Of a stretch of DNA of 44,771 nucleotides, positions 172-42,316 are shown piece by piece. The DNA lies in assembly GCA_003173855.1 (NCBI GenBank), contig PPGI01000014.1:1-44771 (forward strand). Reading direction: 5' to 3'. The notes below the pieces were generated by a model. It did not search any database. It was not told the DNA's origin and saw only the letters and a list, made by a program, of their open reading frames with translations. Origin of the DNA: Candidatus Zambryskiibacteriota bacterium (GTDB lineage: Bacteria > Patescibacteriota > Minisyncoccia > Phycocordibacterales > DATDWN01). Every line of letters starts with the position of its first letter. Positions within the stretch are counted from its first letter, which is position 1. Made by a program: the position numbers and the translations under genes.

Positions 172-200
172 TTGACATATGATTTTTTTCATGATATTCT
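172..200 (+). promoter_or_regulatory. sigma70-type promoter with extended -10, followed by AGGAGG at 207-212
   Basis: TTGACA(172-177)-17 bp-TATTCT(195-200) with TG at 192-193. Confidence 0.6.
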
Positions 201-337
201 TCGGACAGGAGGAAAAATAAAAAAGAAATTAAATGGAGATATTGATGATGGATGTATGAGATCTATTGCCTTGACGATAAGTGGAAAGAATCCAATTAAA
301 GTATACTTTGGGAAACCAAAATGATAGAATTCCCCAT

Positions 338-673
338 ATGAAAAATCCGTACATAAATGCATTAGTAGCCTTTGGATATATTGTCGGCCTTGTTTTTGTT
401 ATGTTTAAGGTAGTAGCCCAATCACAAATTGGGCAAAACACGACAATTCTTGCACCAATGGCTGTACTATGTCTGCTTGTCTTATCAGTGGCACTTATGG
501 GAGTATTATTTTTTTACGAACCAGCACGACTTTTTTTAGAAAATCATAAACGCGAAGCTCTAACTTTTTTTCTAAAAACTGTTGTTACTTTTGCCTGTCT
601 TCTAGCTATTCTATTAATATTAGTTGTTTATTCTAGTTACGTACCTCTTGGATCGAGTTTTTTGATAAAATAA
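338..673 (+). CDS. hypothetical membrane protein (about 3 TM)
   Basis: Three hydrophobic segments; ATG 338 preferred over upstream GTG 281. Confidence 0.75.
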   Translation: MKNPYINALVAFGYIVGLVFVMFKVVAQSQIGQNTTILAPMAVLCLLVLSVALMGVLFFYEPARLFLENHKREALTFFLKTVVTFACLLAILLILVVYSSYVPLGSSFLIK

Positions 674-735
674 TTATCATTTGAAATTCACAATTCTAAA
701 GTTATAATTTAGAAATTATTTTTAACTTAAATAAA

Positions 736-1029
736 ATGATAATCGTACAAGACACATTTGTTTGTAAACCTGGGAACGCTTCGAAAATGGCAAAACTTTT
801 TAAAGAAGTAATGAGTAATGATAAAAGTGTGCTGCATATCATGACTGATATGACGGGACAATACCACAGAGTAATAATGCTATCGAAACATGACAATCTA
901 ACAGCTTATGAAAAAAGTTGGGAAGAATATCAAAATCCAACTCCAGAGATGAAAAAATCAATGGAAAAAATGAATGGAATGAATGATATGTATGTCAGTG
1001 GTTCGCGAGAGATCTTCCAAGTCTGGTAA
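736..1029 (+). CDS. small protein, NIPSNAP/dimeric alpha-beta barrel-like
   Basis: 97 aa; N-terminal 'F.CKPG' and C-terminal 'GSREIF' pattern resemble NIPSNAP-like proteins. Confidence 0.6.
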   Translation: MIIVQDTFVCKPGNASKMAKLFKEVMSNDKSVLHIMTDMTGQYHRVIMLSKHDNLTAYEKSWEEYQNPTPEMKKSMEKMNGMNDMYVSGSREIFQVW

Positions 1030-1089
1030 ACTTCATAATTTCTACATTTTAATTGTCCATAATTAATGATTATCAGTTAAAGATAATTT

Positions 1090-1344
1090 ATGGCACAAAT
1101 AATCAATAATTCACGACCAAACGACCCAGTTGTTGTAGATAATGGAGGAGGTTGGGCAGTTGCGGTCATTGTCTTGCTTATAGTTCTTGCAATAGGAGCG
1201 TATGCGTTAATCAGACATTATAGGCCAGCAGCAACTGGAGGATCAAATCCAAGTACAAATATTAATGTAAGTGTTCCAAATCCTGTCGGCGGTGCAAGCG
1301 GAGGTTCAAGTGCTCCTGATACAGCACCAAATTACAATCCCTAA
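1090..1344 (+). CDS. single-pass small membrane protein with low-complexity tail
   Basis: One TM helix followed by an N/P/G/S-rich tail; terminator follows. Confidence 0.75.
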   Translation: MAQIINNSRPNDPVVVDNGGGWAVAVIVLLIVLAIGAYALIRHYRPAATGGSNPSTNINVSVPNPVGGASGGSSAPDTAPNYNP

Positions 1345-1371
1345 TTATTAGTAAATTCTAGAATTTCCAAC

Positions 1372-1404
1372 AAAGTAAAAAAGCCCGATCGGGCTTTTTT
1401 ACTT
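1372..1404. terminator. bidirectional intrinsic terminator
   Basis: AAGTAAAAAAGCCCGATCGGGCTTTTTTACTT perfect palindrome between convergent genes. Confidence 0.85.
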
Positions 1405-1418
1405 ACTTCTTATATATG

Positions 1419-1601: not shown

Positions 1602-1725
1602 ATGTTTTATTGAATTTTAATGCTAAACGACCTTTGCATAACTCATTCTATATAATGAACATTTAGATCAGATGAATTATGAAGATGTAGATGATATAAT
1701 TAATTATTATTCAATAGCCAAAAAT

Positions 1726-2151: not shown

Positions 2152-2161
2152 ATTAATTAGT

Positions 2162-4308: not shown

Positions 4309-4372
4309 AACTTAATAATTTCCCACTTACAAAAGAGAGGGCGCACGCCTTCTTTTTTGTTATAATAGTAGA

Positions 4373-5602: not shown

Positions 5603-5677
5603 TACTTGACAAGAAAGTAATTAATGTTACTCTTTTTTCAGACGTAATCGGTAACCTGTCGCCGATTTTAGACAGGA

Positions 5678-6295
5678 ATGGAGTTTGACATGTCTGTTGC
5701 GAAAAAGGGCAAGGTAGTGATGGTGAATCATCAGAGGTTGTTCGGATTCATTGAGGAGGAAGTAACGAATGATCAAGTTTTCTTTCACTTCAATGACTAC
5801 GCTCCACATTTCTTTGACTTTGGAGATGGAGTAGTTATCGCTTCTGCAGTAGGGAGTCATTTACCTACATATCCAAGGAAGGGTGATATTTTGTACTATC
5901 ACTCTGCTTTGGGGAGAAAAGGAAGACGAACAATTTCTTGGGTTTATGAAGTCCAGCACATTGCAGCTGAAACAGAAAAACTCAAGAAAGAAATTCTCGA
6001 ACTGAGGACAAAACCACCTTACTCAGGATCGGATCCGTTTCGATCGAGGAGTACAAACGACACGAGATATTCTCCCCCTCCGCCTCCACCCCCACCACCG
6101 CGACAGCCACAGACTCCACTCCCTTGGAGAGTTGTGCTCGCTATTCCATGGGGAACTACTATCACGAGAAAAATAGTGACAAGCCAGTATCGTAAGCTTG
6201 CCTTCGATCGTCATCCAGATCGTGGTGGAAGTCACCAAGCGATGGCAGATTTGAATCGAGCACGAGATGAGGCTCTCAGGTTCGTTACAGTTTAG
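5678..6295 (+). CDS. cold-shock-like OB domain / Pro linker / J-domain fusion protein
   Basis: 'GKV..VN..RLFGFI...VFFHFND' (RNP1/RNP2-like) and C-terminal 'YRKLA...HPDRGG....MA.LN.A'; own promoter at 5606-5633; start may be ATG 5690. Confidence 0.75.
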   Translation: MEFDMSVAKKGKVVMVNHQRLFGFIEEEVTNDQVFFHFNDYAPHFFDFGDGVVIASAVGSHLPTYPRKGDILYYHSALGRKGRRTISWVYEVQHIAAETEKLKKEILELRTKPPYSGSDPFRSRSTNDTRYSPPPPPPPPPRQPQTPLPWRVVLAIPWGTTITRKIVTSQYRKLAFDRHPDRGGSHQAMADLNRARDEALRFVTV

Positions 6296-6302
6296 ATTCG
6301 CG

Positions 6303-6330
6303 AGGCGTCGACTTTGGTCGGCGCCTTTTC
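6303..6330 (+). terminator. intrinsic terminator
   Basis: AGGCGTCGAC/GTCGGCGCCT stem followed by T-run. Confidence 0.8.
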
Positions 6331-7480: not shown

Positions 7481-7569
7481 TCTCTCCTTGTGTGGTTTAT
7501 CAAAAACTCCCTAACTGGGAGTTTTTGTATTCATTGCAATTTTAGAAATAGTATGATAGCTTAGATAAC

Positions 7570-7725
7570 GGAAAATCCCCAAGGGCTGGGATCTCTCGGT
7601 TCGCAAAGTAAGAGGGCGAAAGCTTGAAAGGGATGTGTCCAACCAGTGAGTTGATTCTTCTCTAAAAGAAGAAAAAAATTATTTATGTAGTAAAGGGCGA
7701 CTTCCTTGTCAGGAGGTCGCCCTTG
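7570..7725 (+). ncRNA. candidate small structured RNA
   Basis: TTGCAA(7534)-17-TAGCTT(7557) with TG; 5' GGA..ATCCC pairs with GGGAT..TCC(7630-7640); GC-GAAA-GC hairpin; ends at hairpin 7693-7724. Confidence 0.4.
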
Positions 7726-7729
7726 TTCG

Positions 7730-8380
7730 TTATTGGCGAGATCCGTAGGATCCAGCATAACGTGTGTTGAACCAGCGAGCATGCGCTCGACTGATATTAA
7801 GTTCACGTAAGAAAGTTCTGTAATGTCCGCAGATCTGTCGAGGAGTCTCCTTGTCTACCAGTCTCCTCCGTATGAAGCCTGAAGCCATGTGCATGTAGAC
7901 GTGTGGAATATTTCCAGTGTACAGCTCATGGTCAAAAAGCTCTTGAGCAGTCCTTGTTGGTGTAATTGGAAAATTGCAGACCCAACGTACATAAGTCGCT
8001 CGACTGCGTACGCTTACTTCGAGTTCTTTGCAAGCTAGAAGCATAAATCGTATTTTCCCGAAGAAGTTCTCTTTTGAAAAGCAACTTCGTGAATCTCGAT
8101 TCAGATTGATCTTTGCTTGCGTTAAAATCATTTCGGCATCTTCTCTGGCGTTTGCTCGCATTTTACCTTGCCCTGTTTCCCAGAGAAGAATGTAATATTC
8201 GTATGTTTTTCTGAAGCGAAACAGAGATCTAATGATGTCGATCTGTTCTGGAGTAGTTAGCTCGAAATCCTCAATCAACTTTTCAAGAGTCCTTCTTTCT
8301 ACAAAGAGAAAGCTTTCTAGCATTTTCTCGGGCGTAAGATTTGTGCCCATGATCTCATTCAAAATACTGCTGTGCTGCAT
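7730..8380 (-). CDS. orphan hypothetical protein in a promoter/SD/terminator unit
   Basis: TTGACA(8424-8419)-16-TAATAT, GGAGG at 8390-8386, ATG 8380, terminator hairpin 7693-7724. Confidence 0.75.
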   Translation of the reverse strand: MQHSSILNEIMGTNLTPEKMLESFLFVERRTLEKLIEDFELTTPEQIDIIRSLFRFRKTYEYYILLWETGQGKMRANAREDAEMILTQAKINLNRDSRSCFSKENFFGKIRFMLLACKELEVSVRSRATYVRWVCNFPITPTRTAQELFDHELYTGNIPHVYMHMASGFIRRRLVDKETPRQICGHYRTFLRELNISRAHARWFNTRYAGSYGSRQ

Positions 8381-8482
8381 GAGCACCTCCGATTAAATAT
8401 TAACATTAAATCTCATATTGTCAAATTGTTAAATCAAGATTAATTGACATTTTTATGAATAAATATCGCAATACAATTATTC

Positions 8483-11171: not shown

Positions 11172-11243
11172 TCCAAACAACAGAATTAATTGCAATTATC
11201 TCGATTTTTAGTAGGCTGGAACCAGACTGCACATTTACAGGAG

Positions 11244-11978
11244 ATGATGATGAGTGGAAGACCGTCAGACTACCTAGTTGTGGCGGCCGACTCATATCCT
11301 ATTATTAGGACTGATCGTCATCGCTACACATACAAGAATCTGGTAACAGAACTTGTCGAGAAACTCAAACGAACAAATGTAACAATCAAAGTTGGCCCTG
11401 TTCTTCGAGCAATTGGGTATGATCTGATAAATCTTATCCATTTCCAGAACATGAGAGTCTTTGCCGATCTTAAGCTTGTCGATATTAAGAACACTCTTGA
11501 ACTTGATGGAGTGTTGCTTAATGAGGCAAGACCTGAAATGATCACCGTCTACAGTGATACAACTGTTGAGGCAATGAAAATTCTGAAGCTTTGGTTGCCC
11601 GACACAAAAGTTCTTGGTGTCACGGTAATGACTGATTCAGAGGTTCTAAGTGAGGACCACCTCATTTCGAGAGTAAGAAAGGTAAGACTTGCTGGTATTT
11701 CAGAACTTGTGGCATCTGCATATGAGATACCGCTTATCACGAGGCACTTCAGTAACTACTTTAGTGTTAGTACTCCCGGAGTGCGGCTGCAAGGAGTTGT
11801 TGTGCCTGGTGATGATCAAAATCCAAAACGAGTGATGACTCCGTTCGAAGCAATCCAAGCTGGTGCAAATAGGATCATCGTAGGTCGGCCAGTAACGATG
11901 TCAAACAATCCGTACGACACAGTCATGCGGATTCTTGAAGAAATCCAAGTTGGACTCAAAGAGTTCGGAAGGGATTGA
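11244..11978 (+). CDS. pyrF: orotidine-5'-phosphate decarboxylase (divergent)
   Basis: DLKLVDIKNT (DxKxxDIxxT), TPGVR, DDQ..R..TP, VGRP; AGGAG at 11239 (start ATG 11244-11250). Confidence 0.88.
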   Translation: MMMSGRPSDYLVVAADSYPIIRTDRHRYTYKNLVTELVEKLKRTNVTIKVGPVLRAIGYDLINLIHFQNMRVFADLKLVDIKNTLELDGVLLNEARPEMITVYSDTTVEAMKILKLWLPDTKVLGVTVMTDSEVLSEDHLISRVRKVRLAGISELVASAYEIPLITRHFSNYFSVSTPGVRLQGVVVPGDDQNPKRVMTPFEAIQAGANRIIVGRPVTMSNNPYDTVMRILEEIQVGLKEFGRD

Positions 11979-11981
11979 GTA

Positions 11982-12617
11982 ATGCAGCCAATGAGTGAGC
12001 AAGAAGTTCATGATCGAATACGCAAAACTGGAGCTTTACTTGATGGCCACTTTAGATATGCGGCAAACAAGCACGGTTCAAAGTATGTGGATAAATACAA
12101 AATTTATCCACATACAAGATTAATCTATTTGCTATGCAAAGAAATTGCAGATAGATTTGCGTTTGTAACCAGTATTGATACTGTAGTAGCGCCAGAAAAA
12201 GGAGGAATAATTCTTTCTCATTCAGTTGGATTTAGTTTGACAATGCGAGTGGGAAGAGAAGTTTGTAGTGTCTTTGCAGAAAAAAAGAGAACAATAGACG
12301 ACTTTGAATTTGCTCATGGTTTTTCAAAGTTTGTTAACGATAAAAATGTTCTTGTTGTAGAAGATACAATCAACTCCGGTAAAACTTCAAGAAAAATCAT
12401 CCAACTTGTCAGAGAATATGGAGGCAGAGTTATTGGTCTTGGTGCAATTTGGAATCTAGGAGGTGTTACGGCCGCGGATCTTGAAATCCCAATACTCTCA
12501 TCTCTTGTAAACATTGCTTTCAAATCTTGGAAAGCAATGGATTGTCCATTGTGTGCTCAAGGTGTTCCTATAAATTTTGAGGTCGGCAGAGGACCTCTGG
12601 GCTTCGAGGCTCGCTAA
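11982..12617 (+). CDS. pyrE: orotate phosphoribosyltransferase
   Basis: 'GHF......H...YVDK', PRPP motif VLVVEDTINSG, C-terminal CPLC; terminator at 12607-12640. Confidence 0.85.
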   Translation: MQPMSEQEVHDRIRKTGALLDGHFRYAANKHGSKYVDKYKIYPHTRLIYLLCKEIADRFAFVTSIDTVVAPEKGGIILSHSVGFSLTMRVGREVCSVFAEKKRTIDDFEFAHGFSKFVNDKNVLVVEDTINSGKTSRKIIQLVREYGGRVIGLGAIWNLGGVTAADLEIPILSSLVNIAFKSWKAMDCPLCAQGVPINFEVGRGPLGFEAR

Positions 12618-12664
12618 GTATGGCGAGCCTTTCATTTTTAATTCGATTAATTTACAATTTTGTT

Positions 12665-13285: not shown

Positions 13286-13324
13286 AATTAAGCAAAGATT
13301 AATTTTGTACTGTATAGTATATTG

Positions 13325-14600: not shown

Positions 14601-14659
14601 ATATTGTCTAATGAAGCCGAGATGAAATAAAGTCTAAATTTAATCGGTATTTATAATTG

Positions 14660-23624: not shown

Positions 23625-23717
23625 TAATTCATAATACAACCATCAATCGATTAATCTTTCAAGTTTATTGAAAATTAATAGTCTAAATGTTATAACCTGA
23701 ATTAGGAGGGAAGGACT

Positions 23718-23900
23718 GTGAGATACGAATATAATGGCGATGAAGTCTTTTTCGTTCTGAAAGATCCACAAGGTGATTCAGATTTTTTGCTTTCAAAAGC
23801 AGAATGTGAACTGCGACTGCGAAATTTGCGTGAAAATGGATTGCCAGGTGTCGATGAGATGGAGGAAGCAATCAAAAATTGGCCGTCTGATAAAAAGTAG
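23718..23900 (+). CDS. orphan 60-aa protein in a promoter/SD/terminator unit
   Basis: TTGAAA(23668)-17-TATAAC with TG, AGGAGG at 23704, GTG start, terminator 23910-23939. Confidence 0.7.
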   Translation: MRYEYNGDEVFFVLKDPQGDSDFLLSKAECELRLRNLRENGLPGVDEMEEAIKNWPSDKK

Positions 23901-23947
23901 TCGTTACAGAAAAAGTCGTTTGATCTGTAGCGGCTTTTTCTGATATA

Positions 23948-23985
23948 AAAACAAAACCTCCGCTTGCGCCTGAGGTTTTGTTTTC
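23948..23985 (-). terminator. intrinsic terminator-like hairpin for a minus-strand transcript
   Basis: AAAACAAAACCTC...GAGGTTTTGTTTT. Confidence 0.6.
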
Positions 23986-24174
23986 TTGTGTCACCGTTCT
24001 TTCAAAGAGGGTGTCCCAACTTTATCTAATTGTTGTCTCTAATCGAATGCTCATAACACGCGATACAGCGAGACATTTTTGATTTAATTTTTAAAAGGGA
24101 ATTCTCTCGAGAAGGTAACTATAAATATTTTCTTTCAAAAAATATTAAAAGTCAATATAAATTTAATGTAATTT

Positions 24175-24225: not shown

Positions 24226-24263
24226 GAAAAGGGCAGGTCGTCTTCTGACCTGCCCTCATCCAA

Positions 24264-24392
24264 TTAATTTCGTTGAAACATCTTCCCCCTTGCCTCGTCA
24301 GCCATTTTTCCTGATGCTCCGAGAAGGCAAGTAAGTATTACGATCCCAATGAATACGATGCCGCCGCCGATGATCCAGTAATTTGCATGCAT
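24264..24392 (-). CDS. 42-aa single-TM peptide (not in ORF track)
   Basis: MHANYWIIGGGIVFIGIVILTCLLGASGKMADEARGKMFQRN; TTGACA-16-TATAGT promoter near 24481-24454; terminator GGGCAGGTC/GACCTGCCC at 24231-24255. Confidence 0.65.
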   Translation of the reverse strand: MHANYWIIGGGIVFIGIVILTCLLGASGKMADEARGKMFQRN

Positions 24393-24523
24393 ATGCCACC
24401 AAACGTGCAAGATATTTCAGTCATTATGACTGACAACACTTGCATACTGCTAAACTATACTATAGCCTAAAGTTTTGTCAAGTTATTGAGAAATATGATT
24501 AATATTGTGATAAGATAGCACTC

Positions 24524-26297: not shown

Positions 26298-26301
26298 TCC
26301 A

Positions 26302-27710: not shown

Positions 27711-27763
27711 CACTTAATTTTACATGAAAAAAGAAAAGGCCGGAAGTGTTATCTTCCGACCTG

Positions 27764-28402
27764 CTAGTCTCCAGCGATCGAGTACCGGATGTGTTCTATC
27801 CGCTCATCGAGCCAGTCTTTATGACCCTTGATGATCAATTGAGGAACTTCCTCCTTTGTAGTTTTGTCCGTATAAATAATCTGATCGAAGTCTTCAGGTA
27901 CCCATAGACTGCCTGGGTACATTCTTTCGTATCGAGTTCTGTCATTCTGGTCTCTCTTGCAGATCTGACGCTCAATTTCATCGATTGAAAGGTCCTTGTA
28001 CTTCTCATCACCCTGTCTTCTTTCTGCTCGGATGCGAGAAGGGCAGAGAAGAACAACATGATAGAAATGTGGACAAAAAGCATGAGCAAGACGACTTTCA
28101 ATCACAGTATGATTTTGAGATCCATACAATGCTTGCTCAGTGTCTATCATCTCATCGAAACCCATGTCAGGGTGTTCAAGTATGTAATCAGTAAACTCCT
28201 CGATTGTTTTAAAACCATGGAGTTCGCCAATTTCCCTCATGACCTTTCCCATGCTGATGAACCTAACTCGCCAATCATCTATGTAAAATTCACGAAGTCC
28301 CCTTATTGCTGCGCTTTTACCTGCACCAGCATCTGCTGATATGGTGATCCCATTTGAGTACCACCATTTAGGCAAAAGAGCCCTTTTGGAATAGTCACTC
28401 AT
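27764..28402 (-). CDS. cytidylate kinase-like NMP kinase (archaeal-type)
   Basis: 'ITISADAGAGKS' P-loop, 'S.G..MRE', 'VIESRLA', 'R..R....D..RY...Y'; SD GAGGTG at 28413-28408; terminator 27737-27762. Confidence 0.8.
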   Translation of the reverse strand: MSDYSKRALLPKWWYSNGITISADAGAGKSAAIRGLREFYIDDWRVRFISMGKVMREIGELHGFKTIEEFTDYILEHPDMGFDEMIDTEQALYGSQNHTVIESRLAHAFCPHFYHVVLLCPSRIRAERRQGDEKYKDLSIDEIERQICKRDQNDRTRYERMYPGSLWVPEDFDQIIYTDKTTKEEVPQLIIKGHKDWLDERIEHIRYSIAGD

Positions 28403-28478
28403 GTAATCACCTCTCTAGCCGCAAATTAACATATTGCTAATTGATTTACAACATGTCCTGGATGTACAATATATATAT

Positions 28479-28943: not shown

Positions 28944-28946
28944 TGG

Positions 28947-29069
28947 TGAACTTTCAAATTTGGCGAACTCCTCGTTCCCAAATTAAAAATTCTCGTCACC
29001 TTAGCATTAACTAAGGCTCCTCGCATTTTTAATTTCTCACGTCGGATTTCATCCAAATTTGAAAATTCA
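28947..29069 (-). repeat. long nested hairpin element, family D/E
   Basis: TGAACTTTCAAATTTGG...CCAAATTTGAAAATTCA outer arms; core matches 18307-18423 on the opposite strand. Confidence 0.7.
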
Positions 29070-29110
29070 GAATTCTTGACAGAGTTTGTTAGGTGTGATA
29101 GGCTAAGTTT

Positions 29111-29374
29111 AGATTGCGAAGGAGACTTAGGTTTCTAAAAAAAGGACCTCGGGTGCTTGTTGGTCCGGGTGGCCCCAAAAACGCCACCTTATTAAGCTAG
29201 AGCAAGTCTCCAGAGGGAACAGGGTTCCAGCCCTCGCCTGATTCAGTGTCGGGGAAGCTGGAGCCTTCCCGACAGGTGCTTACTTGACCCCTAAGCAAGG
29301 TCTGGTGATGTCCCTAGCAGGTAGTGATCTAGTCCCTGATTCGGCGCTTCGCCGGGTCAGGGACTCGTTTTTTT
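29111..29374 (+). ncRNA. candidate structured ncRNA upstream of tgt
   Basis: TTGACA(29076)-17-TAGGCT; 5' AGATTGC pairs with GTGATCT(29324); helices GGAGACTT/AAGTCTCC, GGACC/GGTCC, GGTGGC/GCCACC; 16-bp terminator 29331-29365 with T-run; no ORF. Confidence 0.65.
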
Positions 29375-29391
29375 ATACAAAAAAATGTTAA

Positions 29392-31840: not shown

Positions 31841-31841
31841 T

Positions 31842-32855: not shown

Positions 32856-32856
32856 T

Positions 32857-33654
32857 ATGAAAAAAATTTTAATAATCGAAGACGATGTATTTTTGGGAGA
32901 TGTTTTACTCCAAAAAATGACTAAAGAAGGCTACGAGACAGAACTTGCACGGGATGGTAAAGAGGGTTTTGAAAAAATCAAAACAATGAAACCCGATCTT
33001 GTTTTGCTCGATATTGTTTTACCCAATATGAATGGCTACGAAATTCTCGAAGCAAAGCAAATTGATAAAAATATTTCCAGCATTCCGGTAATTGTTATTT
33101 CAAATTCGGGTCAGCCAGTTGAGATCAATCGTGTTCTAGAGTTTGGCGTTAAAGATTATCTTGTTAAAGCACAGTTTGATCCACAAGAAGTTTTGGAAAA
33201 AGTAAAAAATCAATTTTTAAGTGAAGCCGAAAAAAAGCCAAAGGAAACTTCTGACGTGCCTTCAGTTAGTTTAGAGGGTAAGAAAATTCTTTGGGTTGAA
33301 GACGATAAATTTTTAAATGATATTATTGCTAGAAAACTTGCTTCAACAAAATGCATTTTTTCTCATACAGCTGATGGAGAAGAAGCATTGCAGATGATTG
33401 CAAATGACAAACCAGACATAATTTTACTCGATATTATTCTTTCTGGAATTGATGGATATGAGATTTTGCGTCGAATAAAGAGTGACTCAAAAATGAAAGA
33501 TATTCCAGTAATTTTGCTTTCAAATCTTGGTCAGCCATCTGATACAGAAAAAGGGAAATCAATGGGCGCAGCAAGATTTCTTGTAAAAGCCACAGTTACT
33601 TTGGACGAAATTTTAGATGAGATAAAACAAGTCCTCGCTGAATCGAAGAAGTAG
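32857..33654 (+). CDS. response regulator with two receiver domains and no output domain
   Basis: Two 'IL.(I/V)EDD...PD...LDI.L....GYEIL...IPVI..SN...LVKA' modules. Confidence 0.93.
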   Translation: MKKILIIEDDVFLGDVLLQKMTKEGYETELARDGKEGFEKIKTMKPDLVLLDIVLPNMNGYEILEAKQIDKNISSIPVIVISNSGQPVEINRVLEFGVKDYLVKAQFDPQEVLEKVKNQFLSEAEKKPKETSDVPSVSLEGKKILWVEDDKFLNDIIARKLASTKCIFSHTADGEEALQMIANDKPDIILLDIILSGIDGYEILRRIKSDSKMKDIPVILLSNLGQPSDTEKGKSMGAARFLVKATVTLDEILDEIKQVLAESKK

Positions 33655-33701
33655 TTGACGAATTGTATCTTTCATATATACTAATTTATATACTAATTTA
33701 C

Positions 33702-33958
33702 GGAAAGGTGGGGTTTGCCCAGCTCGGAAAGCTCCAGGCCTTATCGGGGTCTGGTCCAGCCGAAACTGTCTCCTAATCGCCATCTCTGCTGTTTTAGCTA
33801 GAGATCGAAACACTCTGGCACCTCCTTCATTCGAGCTCCTTGCTCCACCTTCCATCATTTCATAGATCCTCCTAACTTCGGGTCAAGGGAGGCAGACCAC
33901 TTCGGTCTGAAAAGTACCCGTTATCAGGCGGTCTCAACGTGAGACCGCCTTTCGTTTT
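33702..33958 (+). ncRNA. candidate structured ncRNA, tandem paralog 1
   Basis: TTGACG(33655)-16-TATACT with duplicated -10; GGAAAGGTGGGG pairs with CTCCACCTTCC(33843-33853); several internal hairpins; terminator 33926-33958. Confidence 0.7.
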
Positions 33959-34002
33959 ATGCGCGCTTGACAAAAAATGAAGGTTCCTATATACTTAACT
34001 TC

Positions 34003-34317
34003 GGATGGTGGGTTGCGCTTTGACGACGTTTCTCGGATAACCCTTTCACGTTTATCTTCCGACTTCCGACTTCCGACTTCAGCGTTCCGTTTTCCGTTTC
34101 GCTTAGACGTTGATTGCGCCTTGTGCGCCGCACCGGCCGCGTAAGTGCCGATTCAAAAAAAAGAAAAAGACGAAAACGAGCCGGCAGCTAGCACCGGCAA
34201 GACCCCAGGGTTCGGCAACCCACCACCCACCAGTTCATTTAGAAGTATCATTTAGAGGAGTGAACAAAAAAAACACCCAGAATTGTAAAACCGTGCCACC
34301 GTGGCACGGTATTTTTT
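34003..34317 (+). ncRNA. candidate structured ncRNA, tandem paralog 2
   Basis: TTGACA(33967)-17-TATACT(33990), 7 nt, then GGATGGTGGGTTGC pairing with GCAACCCACCACCC(34215-34228); terminator 34290-34317. Confidence 0.7.
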
Positions 34318-34395
34318 ATTCCAAAAAATTGACAAAGTGTTATTGTCATGTATAATCACACGAGGTTAGTTCGTAAACAATAAGAGAGGTGAGAG

Positions 34396-34917
34396 ATGAA
34401 GATCCCGATTGTGCTCGAGAGGTTTCGAATGTACGTCAAAACTTTCGAAGGTTTTTTCGATGGGATGAAGGAGATCAGATCAATAACTCCGATCGGTCAA
34501 TCAGTGAGCCAGGCACTAGAAAGAGTTCCAGTTCCTGATGTGATGGTTCGAGTAGCAGATTTGCTCGAATTATCAGAAGCATATGTGATGTTTGCACTTT
34601 TGCATCAAGCATATTCCACAGGAAAAGATTTCAATCTACGTCACGTGTTTGCCAAAGCAAATTCAAAGGGCTTCACTTACAGAACCAAATCGGGATTCAT
34701 TTTCGGTTGGCGAAGAATGGGAAAGACTCAGATTTACAAATTCTTCGTCATTCTTGGACCCACATCCAAGTACAAATGGATTGAGGTGGCGGAACACAAT
34801 CTTCTGAACTTAGGTTGGCACAGGATGGTGGAAAGGAAGTACGTAAAATCGGAAGGTCTGATAGAACAGTTCGAGTTGAAGCTCGATCGAGTACACCAGG
34901 ACCGAATCGATCAGTAA
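34396..34917 (+). CDS. orphan basic/aromatic 173-aa protein
   Basis: TTGACA(34329)-16-TATAAT, GAGGTG SD, long hairpin 34950-35010 downstream. Confidence 0.78.
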   Translation: MKIPIVLERFRMYVKTFEGFFDGMKEIRSITPIGQSVSQALERVPVPDVMVRVADLLELSEAYVMFALLHQAYSTGKDFNLRHVFAKANSKGFTYRTKSGFIFGWRRMGKTQIYKFFVILGPTSKYKWIEVAEHNLLNLGWHRMVERKYVKSEGLIEQFELKLDRVHQDRIDQ

Positions 34918-35037
34918 GTAGCGGTTGTAATTGGGAATTCCACACATTCAAAAAGATATCGCAAGAGCTGTATTTATATAAAAATACAAAAATGCTCCGA
35001 TATCTTTTTTATTTTATAAAAAAATAGTAGTATTAAA

Positions 35038-35192
35038 TTTCTCGAACTACTTCTCGAAAAGAGACTACACAGTCGCAAGCCTGGCTCTTGTCAACGTCCT
35101 GCAAAGCAGGCTCATTGACAAGTTGCGGAAACGAGTACAAGCGAGTCGGCGCTGGCCGAATGAGCGGGCTCTTTTCGAAAAGTAGTGAGAAA
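35038..35192. mobile_element. MITE-like element with about 24-bp inverted ends
   Basis: TTTCTCGAACTACTTCTCGAAAAGAG ... CTCTTTTCGAAAAGTAGTGAGAAA around a GC-rich interior. Confidence 0.6.
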
Positions 35193-35199
35193 GAAATTT

Positions 35200-35289
35200 A
35201 TGGCAAAGTTCAAAATAAAACGTGAATTCGCTCCAGCCGGCGACCCAGCACTTTGCTTGCAAAGTGCTGGGCGAGAAGTGGTTATATAA
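35200..35289 (+). pseudogene. truncated duplicate of the uvrB 5' end, interrupted by a 28-bp palindrome
   Basis: MAKFKIKREFAPAGD then CCCAGCACTTTGC-TT-GCAAAGTGCTGGG (35244-35271) and a TAA stop; same frame as uvrB. Confidence 0.75.
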
Positions 35290-37368: not shown

Positions 37369-37423
37369 ATTTGACAAAACCAAATTTTCATAATAATGTA
37401 ATTGTGGATTTGTTGGAGGTCAC

Positions 37424-37519
37424 ATGCCCCTTTCAGCCAATTGGATGTACGCGTTCATCGTCGTTTTCACGGTGTTTGCACTTTGGGGGACACTCTTATC
37501 AGCGAGATCACTGAGATAG
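37424..37519 (+). CDS. 31-aa single-TM peptide (not in ORF track)
   Basis: [31 protein letters not shown]; TTGACA near 37371, GGAGG at 37415, terminator GGCGGGGC-TTTT-GCCTCGCC with T-run. Confidence 0.7.
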
Positions 37520-37605
37520 TCGGGGCGGGGCTTTTGCCTCGCCTTTTTGTATATGCTACTATTCTACCCACATATATAGGCCGAAACGCGGTCTTATTTA
37601 CGCGT

Positions 37606-40221
37606 ATGAAAGAGAAATCACAAGAAAAAATAATTGTAAAGGGTGCCCGTACCCATAATCTTAAAAATATAACAGTCGAAATGCCACGAAATAAGATGGT
37701 GGTTTTTACTGGTTTATCTGGATCGGGAAAATCCTCTCTGGCATTTGACACGATTTTTGCCGAAGGTCAGCGCAGATATGTCGAATCACTTTCTTCATAT
37801 GCTCGCCAGTTTTTACGACAAATGCAAAAACCGGATGTTGATGAAATTACTGGACTTTCTCCTGCAATATCAATTGATCAAAAATCTCGATCAAACAATC
37901 CTCGTTCAACTGTAGCAACAATTACAGAAATGTATGATTATCTTCGAATTTTGTATTCTCGAGTCGGTTCACCGCATTGTTTGGTTTGCGGAATGAAATT
38001 AGAGAAACTATCAAATGAGGAAATTAAAAATTTTGTTATAGAGAAAATCTCAGATTACAAAAAGCTGAAAACTGACAAAAAAATTCCTCTTCCAGTTAAT
38101 GTAGAAATTTATGCTCCTGTAGTTAAGGGAAGAAAAGGCGAATACTACCAGTTGCTTTATGATCTTTTAGGCAAAGGCTACACGACGGTGATGGTTGATG
38201 GCGCAAGAAAATCACTTCGTGATCGTGTGGATTTATCAAAAAATCAAAGACACACTATTGATGTTCAAGTAGACAGCATTTCACTTCTCGACTTTAAGGA
38301 TGATCCAAAAAGTGCAGAGGAAAGATTGTCAGAAGACTTGGAAAAAGCTCTTCACGAATCAGAAGGCCAAGTAAAAATTCTTTTCAGAGATATGGCTGAA
38401 GAAAAAAGAAAGGACTATAAACCAGAGGAATTTTTCATGTCAGCAACTCTCTCTTGTCCACGTGATGGCTATTCCTATCCGGAAGTAGAACCAAGATTGT
38501 TTTCATTCAACTCACCATATGGGGCGTGTCCAGAATGTAATGGTTTAGGAACCAGGCATTTTTTTGGCAATGAACCATGTCCAAAATGTAAGGGGGCACG
38601 ACTTCGAGAAGAAGCTTTGCATGTTTTGCTTGGAAATAAAAATATAGTCGAATTAACAGCAATGTCTATAAAAGATGCTTTTAATTTTTTCGAACATTTG
38701 AAACTCACTGAGCGTGAAAAAAATATTTCGAAGGTCGTGATGAAAGAAATTGAATCTCGACTCCAGTTTATGTTAAATGTTGGGATTGAATATTTATCGC
38801 TTGATCGACGAGCACACACACTTTCTGGAGGTGAGGCTCAGCGTATTCGCCTAGCTAGTCAGCTTGGTTCCAGTCTTGTTGGTGCACTATATGTTTTGGA
38901 TGAACCGACAATTGGACTCCATTCGCGAGACAATGATCGCTTGATTAAAACCTTGCTTGATCTTCGAAATTTAGGAAACACTATTTTAGTTGTTGAGCAC
39001 GATGAAGACACAATTTTCTCATCTGATTATTTAGTTGATATCGGTCCAGGCGCTGGAGTTCACGGTGGACATGTTGTTGTCGCAGATTATCTGGACGATT
39101 TACTAACTGCAAAGAAAAATAATTCTGGGTCAGTGACTCTAGATTATCTTCGTGGAGATAAGGTAATTGAAGTTCCAGATGAACGTCGAGATCAACAAAG
39201 AGGTGAGATTCAAATTCGTGGCGGAAAAGTATTCAACATTAAAAATTTAAATGTTGATATACCGCTCGGCAGATTTATTGCTGTTACAGGAGTTTCTGGT
39301 TCAGGTAAATCTTCTTTTGTCTATGAAATTTTGCACAGAAATCTGCAAGCAAGATTTGATCGAAAATATCGTTCAGCAAATATTTACAACGCAAGTTCTT
39401 TTACTGGAACAGAATATCTTGGCCGAGCAATATTGATCGATCAATCACCAATTGGTCGAACTCCGCGTTCAAATCCGGCAACTTATACTGGTGCTTGGAC
39501 TTTTATTCGTGATTTGTTTTCTGAAACAGCCGAGGCACGTGCTCGTGGATGGAAAGCAAACAGGTTTTCATTTAACGTCAAAGGTGGTCGATGCGAGACG
39601 TGCCAAGGAAATGGAATGATTGAAGTTGAAATGCATTTTCTTCCGACAGTTTATGTTCCTTGTGATGTATGTAAAGGCAAACGATTTATGAAGGAAACTC
39701 TTGAAGTTCGTTACAAAAAGAAAAATATATACGAAGTGCTGAAAATGACTGTTGAGGAAGGACTTAAATTCTTTGAAGATATTCCAGCTGTTGCTGATCG
39801 TCTGAAAACTCTCGATGAAGTAGGTCTTGGGTATTTGGAACTTGGTCAATCAGCCACAACACTTTCTGGCGGTGAAGCTCAACGTGTCAAAATTTCGTCA
39901 GAACTTTATCGTCCACATTTGCAAAAAACAATTTATCTTCTTGATGAGCCAACCATCGGACTTCATTACGAGGATGTCAAAAAATTGATAGAAATTTTGC
40001 AAAAGTTGGTTGATAAAGGAAACACAGTTATGGTTATCGAGCACAATATGGATGTTATTAAATCAACCGATTATATTCTTGATATTGGGCCGGAGGGTGG
40101 TGAGGGAGGTGGCCAACTCATTGCCAAGGGTACTCCGGAAGAGGTGGCAAACAATGAGAAAAGTTATACTGGAAAGTACCTTAAAAAAGCATTAAAGCAG
40201 TATAGGGCTTATCGCAAATAA
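37606..40221 (+). CDS. uvrA: excinuclease ABC subunit A
   Basis: 'GARTHNLKN', two Walker A motifs ([16 protein letters not shown]), two LSGGEAQR, Zn fingers; ATG 37606. Confidence 0.97.
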
Positions 40222-40259
40222 AGAAAGCGCCGGTTCCCCGGCGCTCCATTCAATGATAT

Positions 40260-40376
40260 TCAAAGATTGGGATCGTACTCTTTCGGCAGGGTGCCCTTTC
40301 GGACCTTTGCTCTTATTCCATTGCCGACACAGATCATGATGACCAGAGCTACGATTGCAATCAAAACTTCTCGCAT
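40260..40376 (-). CDS. 38-aa single-TM peptide (not in ORF track)
   Basis: MREVLIAIVALVIMICVGNGIRAKVRKGTLPKEYDPNL; TTGACA near 40420, GGAGG SD, hairpin AGCGCCGG/CCGGCGCT at 40225-40245. Confidence 0.7.
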   Translation of the reverse strand: MREVLIAIVALVIMICVGNGIRAKVRKGTLPKEYDPNL

Positions 40377-40447
40377 GCAAACCTCCAATCCACAGAATAA
40401 CACTATAATAGATAATGTCAAGAAACGACAAAGGCGCCGGAAGGCGC

Positions 40448-40645
40448 CTAAGTTCCATTCTTTTCCTTGATTACTCGAATGATCTCGTCAGTACAAAGAG
40501 CGAGTGCATTGAATGCAAACATCGTAATGACACCCGCTGACAGGTTGATGGTGAACGGTCCCAACTGGAATGGTGTGGAGGATGCTGCTAACATTCCTCC
40601 AAGTACAGCTATAGCATCAAGAATCATTGAAGTCCTTCTACTCAT
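40448..40645 (-). CDS. 65-aa two-TM small protein
   Basis: GGAGG-ctcaa-ATG(40645); TTGACT overlapping the first uvrC codons; terminator AGGCGCC-GGAA-GGCGCCT at 40432-40449. Confidence 0.7.
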   Translation of the reverse strand: MSRRTSMILDAIAVLGGMLAASSTPFQLGPFTINLSAGVITMFAFNALALCTDEIIRVIKEKNGT

Positions 40646-40678
40646 TTGAGCCTCCGAAATACATAGTATCATAAATAT

Positions 40679-42049
40679 ATGAAAAGTCAATACATAAGAA
40701 AAAAAATAGCAGAATTACCTGATTCACCAGGAGTGTATCTTTTTAAACGTGGGTCGAAAATTCTCTACATTGGAAAGGCTACATCACTTTGCGATAGAGT
40801 AGCCAGTTATTTTCGTGATGATATTTTGAAAACGCGTGGGCCTGTAATTGTAAAAATGCTGCGCGATTTTGATAATATCGATTACATAAAAAATGACTCG
40901 GTTCTTGAAGCGCTTCTTCTTGAAGCAAATTTGATTAAAAAACATCAACCACAGGCAAATGCTAAAGAAAAAGATAATAAAAGTTTCAATTTTGTTGTCA
41001 TAACTCGTGAGGATTTTCCACGAATTTTAATTATTCGTGGTAGAGATCTTTTGAACATAAAAAATAACAAAAATAAACTTACTTCGATATATCGAAGTAA
41101 ATCAAATCTTGGAAATTTTAGAATTGGTCACACTTTCGGGCCATTTCCTCATGCTGGGCAGTTGCGTGTCGCTTTAAAAATTATTCGTAAAATGTTTCCA
41201 TATCGCGATGACAAATGTACTTCTTGTGAAGATCAAATACAAAAAATAAAAAATAGAAAACTAAATAAAAATAAAAATCCTATATCTTTCGATATATCGC
41301 AAGATAAGAAGGACCTTGAAGAAAATAAGAAATTATGTAAGCCATGTTTTAATAGACAGATTGGATTATGTCCTGGTGTTTGCACAGGGGAGATTGCACG
41401 CGAAGAATATGCCGAGACTATTCGAAATATTGTTTTATTTTTTGAAGGGAATAAAAGAAGACTCGTGAAAAACCTTGAGAAACAAATGAAAAGTTTCGCA
41501 AAAAATCACGAATTCGAAAATGCAAACATTACTAAACGTATATTATTCTCATTAAACCATATTCAAGATGTTGCACTTCTTAAAGAAGAAGCTATTTCTT
41601 CAAAAGAAGGTTTTCGAATCGAAAGCTATGATATTGCCCATCTTTCTGGAACAAATGTTGTTGGTGTGATGACTGTCGTAGAAAATGGTGAATCCAAAAA
41701 ATCTGATTATCGAAAATTTAAAATTAAGGAAGATCCGGGAATAAATGACACAAAAGCACTTGGAGAAGTTTTGTACCGCAGACTTGGACACAATGAATGG
41801 CCGGAGGCAGATTTGATTGTTGTTGATGGTGGACTTGCACAAAAACGTGTGATGGAGAGAATACTAGCAAATTGTAAAATGCATATTCCTGTTGTTTCAG
41901 TTGTAAAAGATGAGTACCATAGACCAAAGCAAATTTTAGGGGATCGAAAATGGTTAGTACATGAGAGAGAAATTTTACTAGCTAATTCAGAATCTCATCG
42001 TTTCGGAATCACGTATCATACTAAATTAAGAAACAAATTTTTGACATAG
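40679..42049 (+). CDS. uvrC: excinuclease ABC subunit C (no C-terminal HhH; two Lys/Asn-rich inserts)
   Basis: GIY-YIG 'PGVY...YIGKA..L..RV.SYF', Cys cluster, UVR motif, RNase H-like 'IE.YDIAH', 'DLIVVDGG', 'ESHRF'. Confidence 0.93.
   Translation: MKSQYIRKKIAELPDSPGVYLFKRGSKILYIGKATSLCDRVASYFRDDILKTRGPVIVKMLRDFDNIDYIKNDSVLEALLLEANLIKKHQPQANAKEKDNKSFNFVVITREDFPRILIIRGRDLLNIKNNKNKLTSIYRSKSNLGNFRIGHTFGPFPHAGQLRVALKIIRKMFPYRDDKCTSCEDQIQKIKNRKLNKNKNPISFDISQDKKDLEENKKLCKPCFNRQIGLCPGVCTGEIAREEYAETIRNIVLFFEGNKRRLVKNLEKQMKSFAKNHEFENANITKRILFSLNHIQDVALLKEEAISSKEGFRIESYDIAHLSGTNVVGVMTVVENGESKKSDYRKFKIKEDPGINDTKALGEVLYRRLGHNEWPEADLIVVDGGLAQKRVMERILANCKMHIPVVSVVKDEYHRPKQILGDRKWLVHEREILLANSESHRFGITYHTKLRNKFLT
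41079..41100. repeat. palindrome copy 3, inside uvrC
   Basis: TTACTTCGATATATCGAAGTAA. Confidence 0.85.
41283..41306. repeat. palindrome copy 4 (variant), inside uvrC
   Basis: TATCTTTCGATATATCGCAAGATA. Confidence 0.65.
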
Positions 42050-42114
42050 AGTCAACTTTATTTTTGGATAATTTTTTTCTTGACTTTTTATTTTTGTTTG
42101 TATACACTTTCACT

Positions 42115-42316
42115 TGTACTTAGGTGTGACAGGTTCAGAGCCCACAGGGCACAGGGACTGAGTTAGCATCGGGTCGTCTTCCCGGGGATTTCCCCGAAAT
42201 ACGAAACGAAGTTCAAGGCGCGAGCCATGAACGCAAACACAATCTTTCGCAATGCGAGCACTGGGCCGTCACCCCTAGGGACACACACAAAGGTCACTCT
42301 CACGAGCGGCCTTTTT
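42115..42316 (+). ncRNA. candidate structured ncRNA
   Basis: TTGACT(42080)-17-TACACT; 5' TAGGTGTGACAGGTTCAG pairs with CTGGGCCGTCACCCCTAG(42261-42278); hairpins CGGGG/CCCCG and GGC-GCGA-GCC; terminator 42289-42316. Confidence 0.65.

Follow-up and report, generated by a model that had tools for sequence, protein, structure and literature searches.

The classical phage moron consists of a promoter, a gene and a terminator and has a deviant base composition. In Mycobacterium and Deinococcus, leaderless initiation is mixed with initiation led by a Shine-Dalgarno (SD) sequence, the anti-SD sequence is kept and the SD-led genes are ordinary core genes. In Bacteroidota the anti-SD is present but occluded, and the few SD sites that occur have a regulatory role. 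The toxins of type I toxin-antitoxin systems are small hydrophobic peptides, among them Hok, Fst and TisB. The available text of Cumby, Davidson and Maxwell (2012; PMC3594210) describes phage morons as independent transcription units spread among phage genomes, and that of Tsurumaki et al. (2022; RNA 28:1041, PMC9297842) reports an anti-SD in only 48% of Parcubacteria, with a loss that overlaps the group lacking ribosomal protein uL1; in the Parcubacteria without an anti-SD, SD helices are thought not to form. Here, a contig of 44,771 bases from Candidatus Zambryskiibacteriota bacterium, which belongs to the Candidate Phyla Radiation (CPR), was analysed for short units, most of them with a promoter and a terminator of their own, that are scattered between its housekeeping genes.

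The window is this whole contig (C10; GC content 0.373). It belongs to a genome (G000) of 650,933 bases in 16 contigs that is rated 97% complete and whose contigs span GC contents from 0.34 to 0.40. To judge by gene content, the organism is an ultra-small member of the Paceibacteria/Parcubacteria group. Two expression grammars, a compositional contrast between the genes that use them, gaps of variable content and the persistence of certain kinds of unit in one position are all observed. The explanation preferred here, with a probability of about 0.6, is that the window represents the normal architecture of an anti-SD-less Paceibacteria (CPR) lineage, in which two expression grammars coexist and a layer of modules turns over fast. 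Under this explanation the core genes would be SD-less and many of them probably leaderless, with a good -10 box 6-7 nucleotides (nt) before the ATG and a poor -35 box. The flexible layer would consist of short autonomous modules in the gaps between core genes, each with a strong TTGACA -35 box, a weaker -10 box, a predicted transcript start at or just before GGAGG and 5 nt from there to the start codon. The cargo would be short, GC-richer and usually orphan, often a small membrane peptide and sometimes a structured RNA that has no reading frame, with a GC-rich intrinsic terminator after it. In such a layer turnover would be rapid, with modules gained, lost, duplicated in tandem or replaced; certain kinds of module would be inherited in place across the genus, and others would be patchily shared within the CPR, carrying their own signals. 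The simplest route may be ordinary recombination at terminator or intergenic sequence, no dedicated insertion machinery being evident.

Two expression grammars and an altered 16S tail

Genes were called over the whole genome with a simple codon-trained open reading frame (ORF) caller. Among the 474 genes of at least 150 amino acids (aa), SD 4-mers precede the start in 7.2%, compared with 6.8% in the background; the 100 genes below 100 aa show a sharp SD peak at -10/-9. In 18% of the genes of at least 150 aa the last base of a TANNNT hexamer is exactly 6 nt from the start, compared with about 3-7% at other distances and about 4% at the neighbouring ones, and 129 SD-less genes have a -10 match of at least 4/6 located 6-7 nt 5' of the start.

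Of 752 occurrences of GGAGG, 158 have a start codon and an ORF of at least 25 aa after them, with a spacing of 4-5 nt in 83; control 5-mers reach 9-19%. A pipeline preferring SD-led starts placed 117 ORFs in an SD-led class, with 615 other genes. Two controls were applied to this class: reverse-complement motifs gave 29 ORFs, and motifs moved 20 nt too far upstream (wrong spacing) gave 59. When GGAGG alone was counted, the pipeline gave 69 ORFs, the CCTCC control 7 and the wrong-spacing control 22. These control counts indicate roughly 60-90 real SD-led genes among the approximately 730 called genes. The frameshift SD of prfB was also considered as an internal test and was set aside, as the release-factor gene is a single in-frame ORF and its GGAGG is coincidental.

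The SD class and the remaining genes compare as follows.

Median length: SD class 89 aa; rest 236 aa
GC: SD class 0.436; rest 0.363 (p=4e-44)
Codon score per residue: SD class 0.09; rest 0.227
Terminator downstream: SD class 63%; rest 21%
Promoter scoring at least 10 upstream: SD class 37%; rest 18%
Distance from -10 end to start: SD class 15-25 nt (mode 17); rest 6-7 nt
Mean -35 match: SD class 4.53 (41/74 with at least 5/6); SD-less genes with a -10 at 6-7 nt 2.98 (10/129)
Pfam family present: SD class 10/62; SD-less genes below 200 aa 84/113

The Pfam comparison took 62 proteins of the SD class and 113 of the 147 SD-less genes below 200 aa, leaving the window's own genes and very short ones out of the control set. 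For the SD class, the distance from the -10 box to the start points to a leader of about 10 nt with GGAGG at its very beginning. The -10 box is better in the leaderless class, where TATAAT is the commonest hexamer, and TTGACA is 3.7 times denser outside the SD-less core genes, control hexamers having values of 1.05 and 0.66. Most SD genes lie scattered, as 69 singletons compared with 21 runs of 2-4. The spacing of their GGAGG is constant relative to the start codon, not relative to the -10 box; in the window units 34329, 5606 and 24481, for example, the promoters lie 39-61 nt away. The base after GGAGG is T in 58% of SD sites and in 26% elsewhere, as in a canonical SD, and in positional counterparts of relatives GGAGG is conserved amid diverged flanks.

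Raw counts of promoter-like sequences are no higher than in shuffled DNA (59 vs 64.7, 49 vs 56.0 and 24 vs 17.7), and terminators exceed the shuffles solely in the 20-40 kb part (26 vs 13.2, standard deviation 3.3). Since the raw promoter counts stand at shuffle level, the case rests on the combined architecture, tested genome-wide. The combined pattern of promoter, SD and terminator is not chance.

The 16S gene is present in 16 of the 40 other genomes of the genus. All five congener 16S genes with a complete 3' end finish in ...GGAAGCTGGTCGTGGA(A/T)TA(A/T)TTCAATT, without CCTCC, and CCTCC was not found in the next few hundred bases after these ends. The 3' end of the E. coli 16S is GGAUCACCUCCUUA; the altered tail of the congeners is of the AAUAAUUCAAUU type, in which an AUUCA-type sequence replaces CCUCC. 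Ribosomal protein uL1 was not found in G000. In view of the published anti-SD loss, a core without SD and with leaderless genes is known biology. The loss accounts for this core but not for the conserved GGAGG leaders, and a literature search found no paper describing conserved GGAGG leaders in an anti-SD-less background. An alternative SD that would pair with the changed 16S end was also sought and rejected: no such motif is enriched, and the 5-mers that are overrepresented upstream of core genes resemble -10 boxes.

Some relatives have SD-led membrane ORFs immediately downstream of their CCUCC-less 16S genes, on the same contig. In three of these genomes (L105, L108 and L112) the 16S is not followed by a 23S gene; within about 300 nt there is a TTGAC[AT] promoter, a GGAGG or GGGAG leader and a small membrane ORF.

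The units of the window

Sixteen sites had been listed in an earlier note on this DNA as promoter-cargo-terminator units. They sort into 10 SD-led protein units, five structured and GC-rich units that look non-coding, and one doubtful unit. In the list below, promoters are given as the -35 box, spacer length and -10 box, followed in brackets by the match score and TG where noted; z values compare folds with shuffles.

172..673, plus: doubtful unit; promoter-like TTGACA-17-TATTCT (TG) at 172-200; GC 0.31; no terminator
5606..6327, plus: SD-led protein unit; TTGACA-16-TACTCT (TG), GGAG 6 nt before ATG 5690, ORF 5690-6295, terminator 6302-6327
7534..7735, plus: non-coding-looking unit of about 170 nt; weak promoter; fold z -4.2
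7730..8424, minus: SD-led protein unit 8424; TTGACA-16-TAATAT (TG), 6 nt, GGAGG (8390-8386), 5 nt, ATG 8380
11190..12631, plus: SD-led two-gene unit; TTGCAA-16-TAGGCT, AGGAG, ATG at about 11250, pyrF to 11978, pyrE 11982-12617, terminator 12606-12631
23668..23990, plus: SD-led protein unit; promoter-like TTGAAA-17-TATAAC, its -10 without the final T; AGGAGG, GTG 23718, 60-aa ORF to 23900, two hairpins
24229..24481, minus: SD-led protein unit 24481; TTGACA-16-TATAGT (11/12), weak SD GGTGG, 42-aa hydrophobic ORF 24392-24264, terminator 24257-24229
27737..28450, minus: SD-led protein unit 28402; weak promoter, GAGGTG 5 nt before ATG 28402, ORF 28402-27764, terminator 27762-27737
29076..29375, plus: non-coding-looking unit; TTGACA-17-(TG)TAGGCT, RNA of about 265 nt, GC 0.54, fold z -4.4; 16-bp terminator at 29331-29365, just 5' of tgt
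33655..33958, plus: non-coding-looking unit; TTGACG-16-TATACT (10/12), RNA of about 270 nt, terminator 33926-33950, z -3.6
33967..34318, plus: non-coding-looking unit; TTGACA-17-TATACT (11/12), RNA of about 317 nt, terminator 34290-34310, z -2.7
34329..34990, plus: SD-led protein unit; perfect TTGACA-16-TATAAT (12/12), GAGGTG, ATG 34396, 173-aa orphan ORF to 34917; only a weak AT-rich hairpin at the end
37371..37545, plus, between uvrB and uvrA: SD-led protein unit; TTGACA-17-TAATGT, GGAGG, ATG 37424, 31-aa hydrophobic peptide, terminator 37522-37545
40224..40426, minus, between uvrA and uvrC: SD-led protein unit 40420; TTGACA-16-TATTCT (10/12, TG), 7 nt, GGAGG, 5 nt, ATG 40376, 38-aa hydrophobic peptide, terminator 40247-40224
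40432..40690, minus, between uvrA and uvrC: SD-led protein unit 40690; TTGACT-16-TACTAT (9/12, TG), 7 nt, GGAGG, 5 nt, ATG 40645, 65-aa two-helix membrane peptide, terminator 40449-40432
42080..42320, plus, between uvrC and ddl: non-coding-looking unit; TTGACT-17-TACACT (9/12), RNA of about 206 nt that folds as a single long imperfect hairpin, weak terminator, z -5.1

Consensus scans list nine promoters (172, 8424-, 24481-, 33655, 33967, 34329, 40421-, 40690- and 42080), and five more were read directly from the sequence (5606, 29076, 37371, 11190 and 23668; spacing 16-17, -10 of the form TAnnn[TC]), which leaves the weak promoters of 7534 and 28402-. At sequence level, 12 of the 16 sites have a TTGAC[AGT] -35 box. 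Eleven strong terminators, each a GC-rich hairpin with a T-run, were found at 6302, 7693, 12606, 24257-, 27762-, 29331, 33926, 34290, 37522, 40247- and 40449-; the terminators behind 34917 and 42316 are weak, and 673 is followed by none. The terminator hairpin of unit 7534 (14 bp, 7693-7724) also serves unit 8424, the two being back to back.

The scattered units that the earlier note had described therefore stand, with promoters scanned or read at 14 of the 16 sites, and the correction is that five of them look non-coding. Its impression that most coding units are GC-richer was borne out (units at 0.38-0.51, window 0.373), with the exception of unit 172, and the same is true of its observations that the housekeeping genes have no SD, now at the scale of the genome, and that the uvrB/uvrA/uvrC cluster is split, by what prove to be SD-led mini-ORFs. 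Leaderless-type starts are predicted at 4373, 30644 and 42413, as it had proposed. The SD sites that it ascribed to most coding units are present in the 10 protein units, the ORF of unit 8424 starting at ATG 8380, and do not extend to unit 172. There, an AGGAGG at about 207 lies 20 nt from the next ATG, so that no start stands at SD spacing. The ORF 338-673 of the same unit (111 aa, membrane-like, with homologues in 2/9 relatives) has TAGAAT 7 nt 5' of its ATG, and the unit is considered doubtful because this ORF looks leaderless.

The larger cargo proteins are of several sorts. The 201-aa product of ORF 5690-6295 has a cold-shock-domain-like N-terminal part, a proline run and a J-domain-like HPD motif; its GC is 0.46 and its codon score 0.11, and it was found in 0/9 relatives. 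The 212-aa cargo of unit 28402 is a P-loop protein resembling a nucleotide kinase and was the sole match of PADLOC, to the kinase part of a viperin-kinase model. The pyrF gene of unit 11190 is present in segments of 1/9 relatives. The 216-aa protein of unit 8424 (ORF 8380-7730) matches no known family. Its AlphaFold model is confident and all-helical (predicted local distance difference test score, pLDDT, 85.3), and a Foldseek search with it gave no meaningful fold match (best E 0.46). The best VIA-align match (Z 7.5) was to designed helical repeats and is within helical noise. The ESM Atlas offered weak resemblances to the SAM-like domain found in phage integrases (118 shared features).

The five non-coding-looking units (7534, 29076, 33655, 33967 and 42080) have no convincing reading frame and fold with z values of -2.7 to -5.1. 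They gave no real DNA match (29076 in 40 relatives, the others in 120), the short hits being AT-rich promoter stretches, and nothing was found in 1.3 Mb of related loci. No Rfam 15 family was found for any unit, nor in the FKBP>TGT slot of three relatives; within the window Rfam reports three tRNAs only, both at gathering score and at E<=1. A housekeeping identity was also rejected: the RNase P RNA and the transfer-messenger RNA (tmRNA) are on other contigs, and no unit scored for signal recognition particle (SRP) RNA or 6S RNA at E<=1. SRP RNA (small and large) and 6S RNA were not detected in G000 by Rfam models, and its RNase P RNA scores below the cut-off (72.5 bits). In the FKBP>TGT slot, 9/20 genomes have a TTGACA promoter, a GC-rich non-coding-looking stretch and a terminator upstream of tgt, which suggests a class of RNA defined by position. 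The stretches of the window, L003, L011 and L019 share short motifs only and align poorly in MAFFT, so that no RNA family is claimed for them.

Unit 33655 contains CACCUCCUU, the canonical anti-SD with flanks, at 33819-33827, with a predicted unpaired probability of 0.93. On the opposite strand these bases read AAGGAGGTG, and a GTG 5 nt further on begins a frame of 67 aa. The genome has six occurrences of CACCTCCTT, most of them within genes. Small RNAs (sRNAs) bearing an anti-SD were rejected as a general feature, CCUCC being found in unit 33655 only among the window units; 13 non-coding promoter-to-terminator units genome-wide hold 2 CCTCC and 5 GGAGG. In the adjacent unit 33967, positions 34060-34085 hold the direct repeat TTCCGAC three times and then TTCCGTTTTCCGTTTCGC, and an 11-codon frame (ATG 34005, MVGCALTTFLG) lies near the predicted 5' end, nearly without a leader.

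Several other features were seen beside the units. With TTG 37402 as its start, the longest uvrA frame overlaps the unit of the 31-aa peptide, and uvrA homology begins at ATG 37606; automatic annotation would therefore probably over-extend uvrA and hide the mini-gene. Just 5' of the uvrA start (window 37560-37605, relatives L004-L020) is a conserved element of CCYATAG, a short GC hairpin, TATTTRCGTAT and the ATG, seen in about 15/21 genomes by eye and in 4/21 by strict pattern, which may be a promoter/operator or a leader hairpin of uvrA. Directly after the FKBP stop, at 28944-29070, there is a long hairpin of 125 nt (z -6.0 on the plus and -9.8 on the minus strand) that has 91% identity over 122 nt to the same slot of L003, the flanking proteins being only 63-73% identical in aa. 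Upstream of uvrB, positions 35040-35215 hold a repeat of about 120-170 nt (fold z -3.3 plus, -4.7 minus strand) with seven more copies, on C9, C1, C4 (two), C7 (two) and C11, the copies being 72-94% identical.

Gap contents and turnover among relatives

Synteny was compared with 20 relatives of the same genus, nine of which were extended to 43-80 kb; whole-genome protein searches covered 40 congeners and DNA searches for the non-coding units 40-120 relatives. The order LOG(-), FKBP, TGT, uvrB, uvrA, uvrC, ddl is kept in the 20 relatives, and even the nearest are distant, with a UvrA identity of 85-88%, about 87% in the nearest, and a Ddl identity of about 48%. A metagenome scan with TGT found nothing above 73% identity as a closer relative. 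Three DNA runs and no RNA run were found to contain the window stretch, and the DNA runs gave same-strain fragments only, with no informative joints. A search for relatives near enough to reveal empty sites or target duplications in this genome thus found none. The gaps between the conserved genes vary from 19 to 4707 nt overall.

LOG>FKBP: gap of 109-1421 nt
FKBP>TGT: gap of 26-614 nt
TGT>uvrB: gap of 33-4707 nt
uvrB>uvrA: gap of 237-927 nt
uvrA>uvrC: gap of 65-2036 nt
uvrC>ddl: gap of 19-1202 nt

Near-empty slots occur at uvrA>uvrC (65 nt, L014), uvrC>ddl (19-24 nt; L004, L008 and L015), FKBP>TGT (26-73 nt, five relatives) and TGT>uvrB (33 nt; L009 and L012). The ORFs in the gaps cluster mostly in groups of 2-3 genomes, with two exceptions: LOG>FKBP has an ORF of 243-347 aa in 15 of 19 relatives, where the window has the kinase-like unit instead, and uvrC>ddl has an ORF of 195-229 aa in eight genomes, where the window has the RNA-like unit 42080. 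Among the nine extended relatives, a backbone consisting of 4373, 13322-14657, 15631, 16460, msrA/B, 24524-26302, LOG, FKBP, TGT, uvrBAC and ddl is kept in 6-9, and nine SD-led proteins of the window were found in 0/9 of the syntenic segments. The SD-less genes 2162, 8561 and 10238, the FIST-HK-RR block and dinB are also at 0/9 and the MacB operon is at 1/9; since these genes are equally variable, variable content is not confined to the units. The FIST-HK-RR block (30644-33654, between TGT and uvrB) consists of a FIST-sensor, a histidine kinase (HK) and a response regulator (RR), is as SD-less and AT-rich as core genes are, and is otherwise present in L014 only (1/20 relatives, 62-77% identity).

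Certain kinds of unit stay in place. In a list of hydrophobic ORFs drawn up regardless of SD, an SD-led membrane ORF occurs on the plus strand of the uvrB>uvrA slot in 11/21 genomes, and one occurs on the minus strand of the uvrA>uvrC slot in 11/21 genomes. That 11/21 genomes have this kind of ORF in one slot and one orientation indicates that the layer is in part old and resident. To the eye, a loose A-F-x-x-x-F-x-x-F-x-x-W pattern is common to the peptides of about 30 aa. The two-helix peptides of 55-65 aa end in D-E-[IV]-C-x-A-I-[RK], and that of the window has 21-30% identity to those of the relatives, with an hhalign probability of 39.8% (six relatives).

Other units are distributed patchily. 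In whole-genome searches, the proteins that start at 34396 (unit 34329) and end at 7730 (unit 8424) were found in 0/40 genomes of the genus. The 34396 family has seven hits among 1.84 billion representatives; the 7730 family has five homologues among 5.8 billion proteins, one of them labelled Candidatus Paceibacterota, and one locus among 185,579 species genomes. This locus, the only one from a genome collection, is in G058, in another genus of the same family. The homologue there has 39% identity and lies in the layout TTGACA-17-TAATTT-6-GGAGG-5-ATG with a terminator, compared with TTGACA-16-TAATAT-6-GGAGG-5-ATG in the window; its neighbours, an RmuC-like gene, a membrane protein and leuS, differ from those in the window.

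Even the closest pairs on a UvrB+UvrA+TGT tree still differ in slot length. In the pair L004/L008, L008 has three extra cassettes (868 nt vs 195 nt), and on the left the breakpoint falls immediately behind the T-run that closes a terminator hairpin. Behind three cassettes of L008 stands a near-identical hairpin, GGGCGCCGACTAACCCTCGGCGCC, with an ACCCC flank; cassette 2 is non-homologous to the other two, which are paralogs. The window units share no sequence with each other and have no common end sequence, and no common end motif was found among the terminators of 74 SD-led genes of G000, which are diverse.

Few traces of mobility machinery were found. The window has no integrase, capsid, terminase or replication gene. 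A single tyrosine recombinase is encoded in G000, on contig C12 and not near arrays, and no reverse transcriptase was found in this genome. PHROGs gave 3 hits among 52, and viral contigs contained no relatives of the two families tested. On contig C4, at about 38.2-43.2 kb, a run of SD-led GC-rich ORFs stands beside the tmRNA gene (38184-38559); it includes a 70-aa protein resembling an excisionase helix-turn-helix (HTH) protein (GC 0.58) and looks like a small integrative island.

Alternative explanations and known systems

Four other explanations were weighed. If the units were a purely native and vertical class of fast-evolving genes, such as highly or conditionally expressed small proteins and sRNAs that never move laterally, the SD-led membrane ORFs persisting beside uvrA, the GGAGG conserved amid diverged flanks and the lack of a phage or mobile signature in PHROGs and viral contigs would all be expected. 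This appears unlikely in the light of the 7730 family, which is absent from 40/40 congeners and yet 39% identical in another genus at a different locus; of the three whole cassettes by which the close pair L004/L008 differs; of the kinase-like gene that stands where 15/19 relatives have another conserved ORF; and of the atypical codon usage. The opposite extreme, dedicated mobile cassettes inserted by specific machinery that has gone unrecognised, as in integrons, is quite unlikely. It would explain why a self-contained layout is kept at a different locus in another genus, the distinct composition and patchy distribution, and the hairpin GGGCGCCGACTAACCCTCGGCGCC behind three cassettes of L008, after whose T-run the difference from L004 begins. 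Against it stand the window units without shared sequence, the 74 terminators without a common end motif, the lone recombinase on C12 with no reverse transcriptase, the own promoter of each unit, unlike integron cassettes, and the kinds that stay in one slot in 11/21 genomes.

It is very unlikely that the SD-led GC-rich genes are prophage or integrative-element remnants, that is, phage or plasmid debris adapted to SD-using hosts. The run beside the tmRNA gene on C4, a classical integration site, with its excisionase-HTH-like protein would suit such an origin, and a shared mobile pool could be tuned to SD because about half of Parcubacteria keep the anti-SD, according to the available part of Tsurumaki et al. 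(2022; PMC9297842). The window, in contrast, has none of the phage or replication genes named above, PHROGs and the viral contigs gave next to nothing, and the SD genes are mostly dispersed rather than in runs. Extremely improbable is an artefact of chance or annotation, in which GC-richer intergenic DNA yields promoter-like and SD-like strings at random and small ORFs that are not genes. Promoter-like counts at shuffle level and the low coding scores of many small ORFs speak for an artefact. The reverse-complement and wrong-spacing controls, however, yield far fewer motif-led ORFs, the spacing is sharp both after GGAGG (4-5 nt) and from the -10 box (15-25 nt), TTGACA is 3.7 times enriched outside core genes, and the larger cargo proteins have homologues, one of them being predicted to fold confidently.

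A number of points weigh against the preferred explanation of a normal two-grammar architecture with a fast-turning layer. The SD class holds false positives, the controls pointing to 29-59 of 117, and one was verified, an internal GGAGG within the release-factor gene. GC-richness alone raises the chance of GGAGG, though the reverse-complement control argues otherwise. Promoters, transcript ends and leaderless starts are sequence predictions throughout. The non-coding-looking units could conceal unconventional ORFs or be decayed genes, and in unit 33655 a minus-strand SD-led ORF (33858-33613) is possible. As the 16S of G000 is unassembled, its lack of an anti-SD is deduced from congeners. With relatives as distant as these, a short peptide or RNA without a BLAST match may have been lost or replaced or may just have diverged fast, and gains are not polarisable; the homology of the resident peptides is no more than suggestive.

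The earlier note had taken the units for acquired modules, inserted by some route, with expression rules distinct from those of the core. The distinct rules are upheld genome-wide by the contrasts in -35 box, leader, SD and terminator, and the classification it had proposed, by SD, promoter, terminator and codon usage, separated two classes that differ. Of the acquisition, a class of single-transcript size, patchy families and a cross-genus copy stand, while insertion as a general rule is not borne out, given the residents in 11/21 genomes. Boundaries at a terminator T-run, which it had also anticipated, were seen in L004/L008, and no shared ends were found in this genome; the integrases or reverse transcriptases that it would have sought elsewhere come down to the recombinase on C12. 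It had named conserved, syntenic units with ordinary SD and codon usage as evidence to the contrary. SD and codon usage do differ and the slots vary, although some kinds persist in place.

How the GGAGG leaders are read is a separate matter. That they function without an anti-SD, GGAGG holding a constant 5-nt spacing to the starts of orphan modules in species with CCUCC-less ribosomes and the modules being read by a route that does not use the 16S 3' tail, is a tentative and rather doubtful proposal. Candidate readers would be another contact with rRNA or a ribosomal protein, or a trans-acting RNA such as that of unit 33655 with its unpaired CACCUCCUU. If the proposal were true, the GGAGG route would be a separate, switchable translation channel for flexible genes. 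CPR bacteria account for a large part of bacterial diversity, and the way in which they express their genes has hardly been studied. Should selection maintain SD leaders in about one gene in ten of an organism that lacks the anti-SD, then either GGAGG would be recognized by some unknown means or the genes that carry it would be deliberately kept out of core translation, and either outcome bears on the evolution of translation initiation after anti-SD loss. The module signature of TTGACA, a short GGAGG leader, small GC-rich cargo and a terminator is also usable by gene callers for CPR small proteins and sRNAs that are missed or mis-started, and it offers a handle on accessory-gene turnover in streamlined genomes without visible mobile-element machinery.

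Among the systems to which this genome can be compared, the Parcubacteria subgroup of Tsurumaki et al. (2022) agrees with it in the congener 16S genes without CCUCC, the uL1 that was not found and the core genes without SD; the textbook GGAGG minority class seen here is not described in the available part of that paper. With Mycobacterium and Deinococcus it shares two initiation modes per genome and a leaderless -10 box about 6-7 nt before the start. The SD class here, in contrast, consists of orphan GC-richer modules with another promoter grammar, and the anti-SD is apparently missing. As in Bacteroidota, SD is nearly unused by core genes and retained by a few special ones, but the 16S tail of Bacteroidota has CCUCC and that of the congeners is AUUCA-type. 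The hydrophobic peptides of 31, 38, 42 and 65 aa, in gaps and with their own promoter, SD and terminator, resemble type I toxins; they differ in their leaders of about 10 nt, with no long structured leader. No antisense promoter was noticed on reading around the peptide units that flank uvrA, where no systematic antisense search was made.

Integron arrays and clusters of attC sites lacking integron-integrases (CALINs) likewise hold small, variable and often orphan genes head to tail in hot spots, and the L008 array has a repeated hairpin. They differ in that this genome has no attC-like shared site and no IntI-type integrase beside arrays, and in that every unit here has its own promoter and terminator. 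By analogy, the modules appear closest in design to phage morons. Both are single genes with their own promoter and terminator, placed between genes that are adjacent in relatives, with a different composition and accessory cargo. Here, however, the units belong to a cellular chromosome, without phage genes nearby, and account for about one gene in ten, several kinds stay put across the genus, and some of the cargo is RNA-like.

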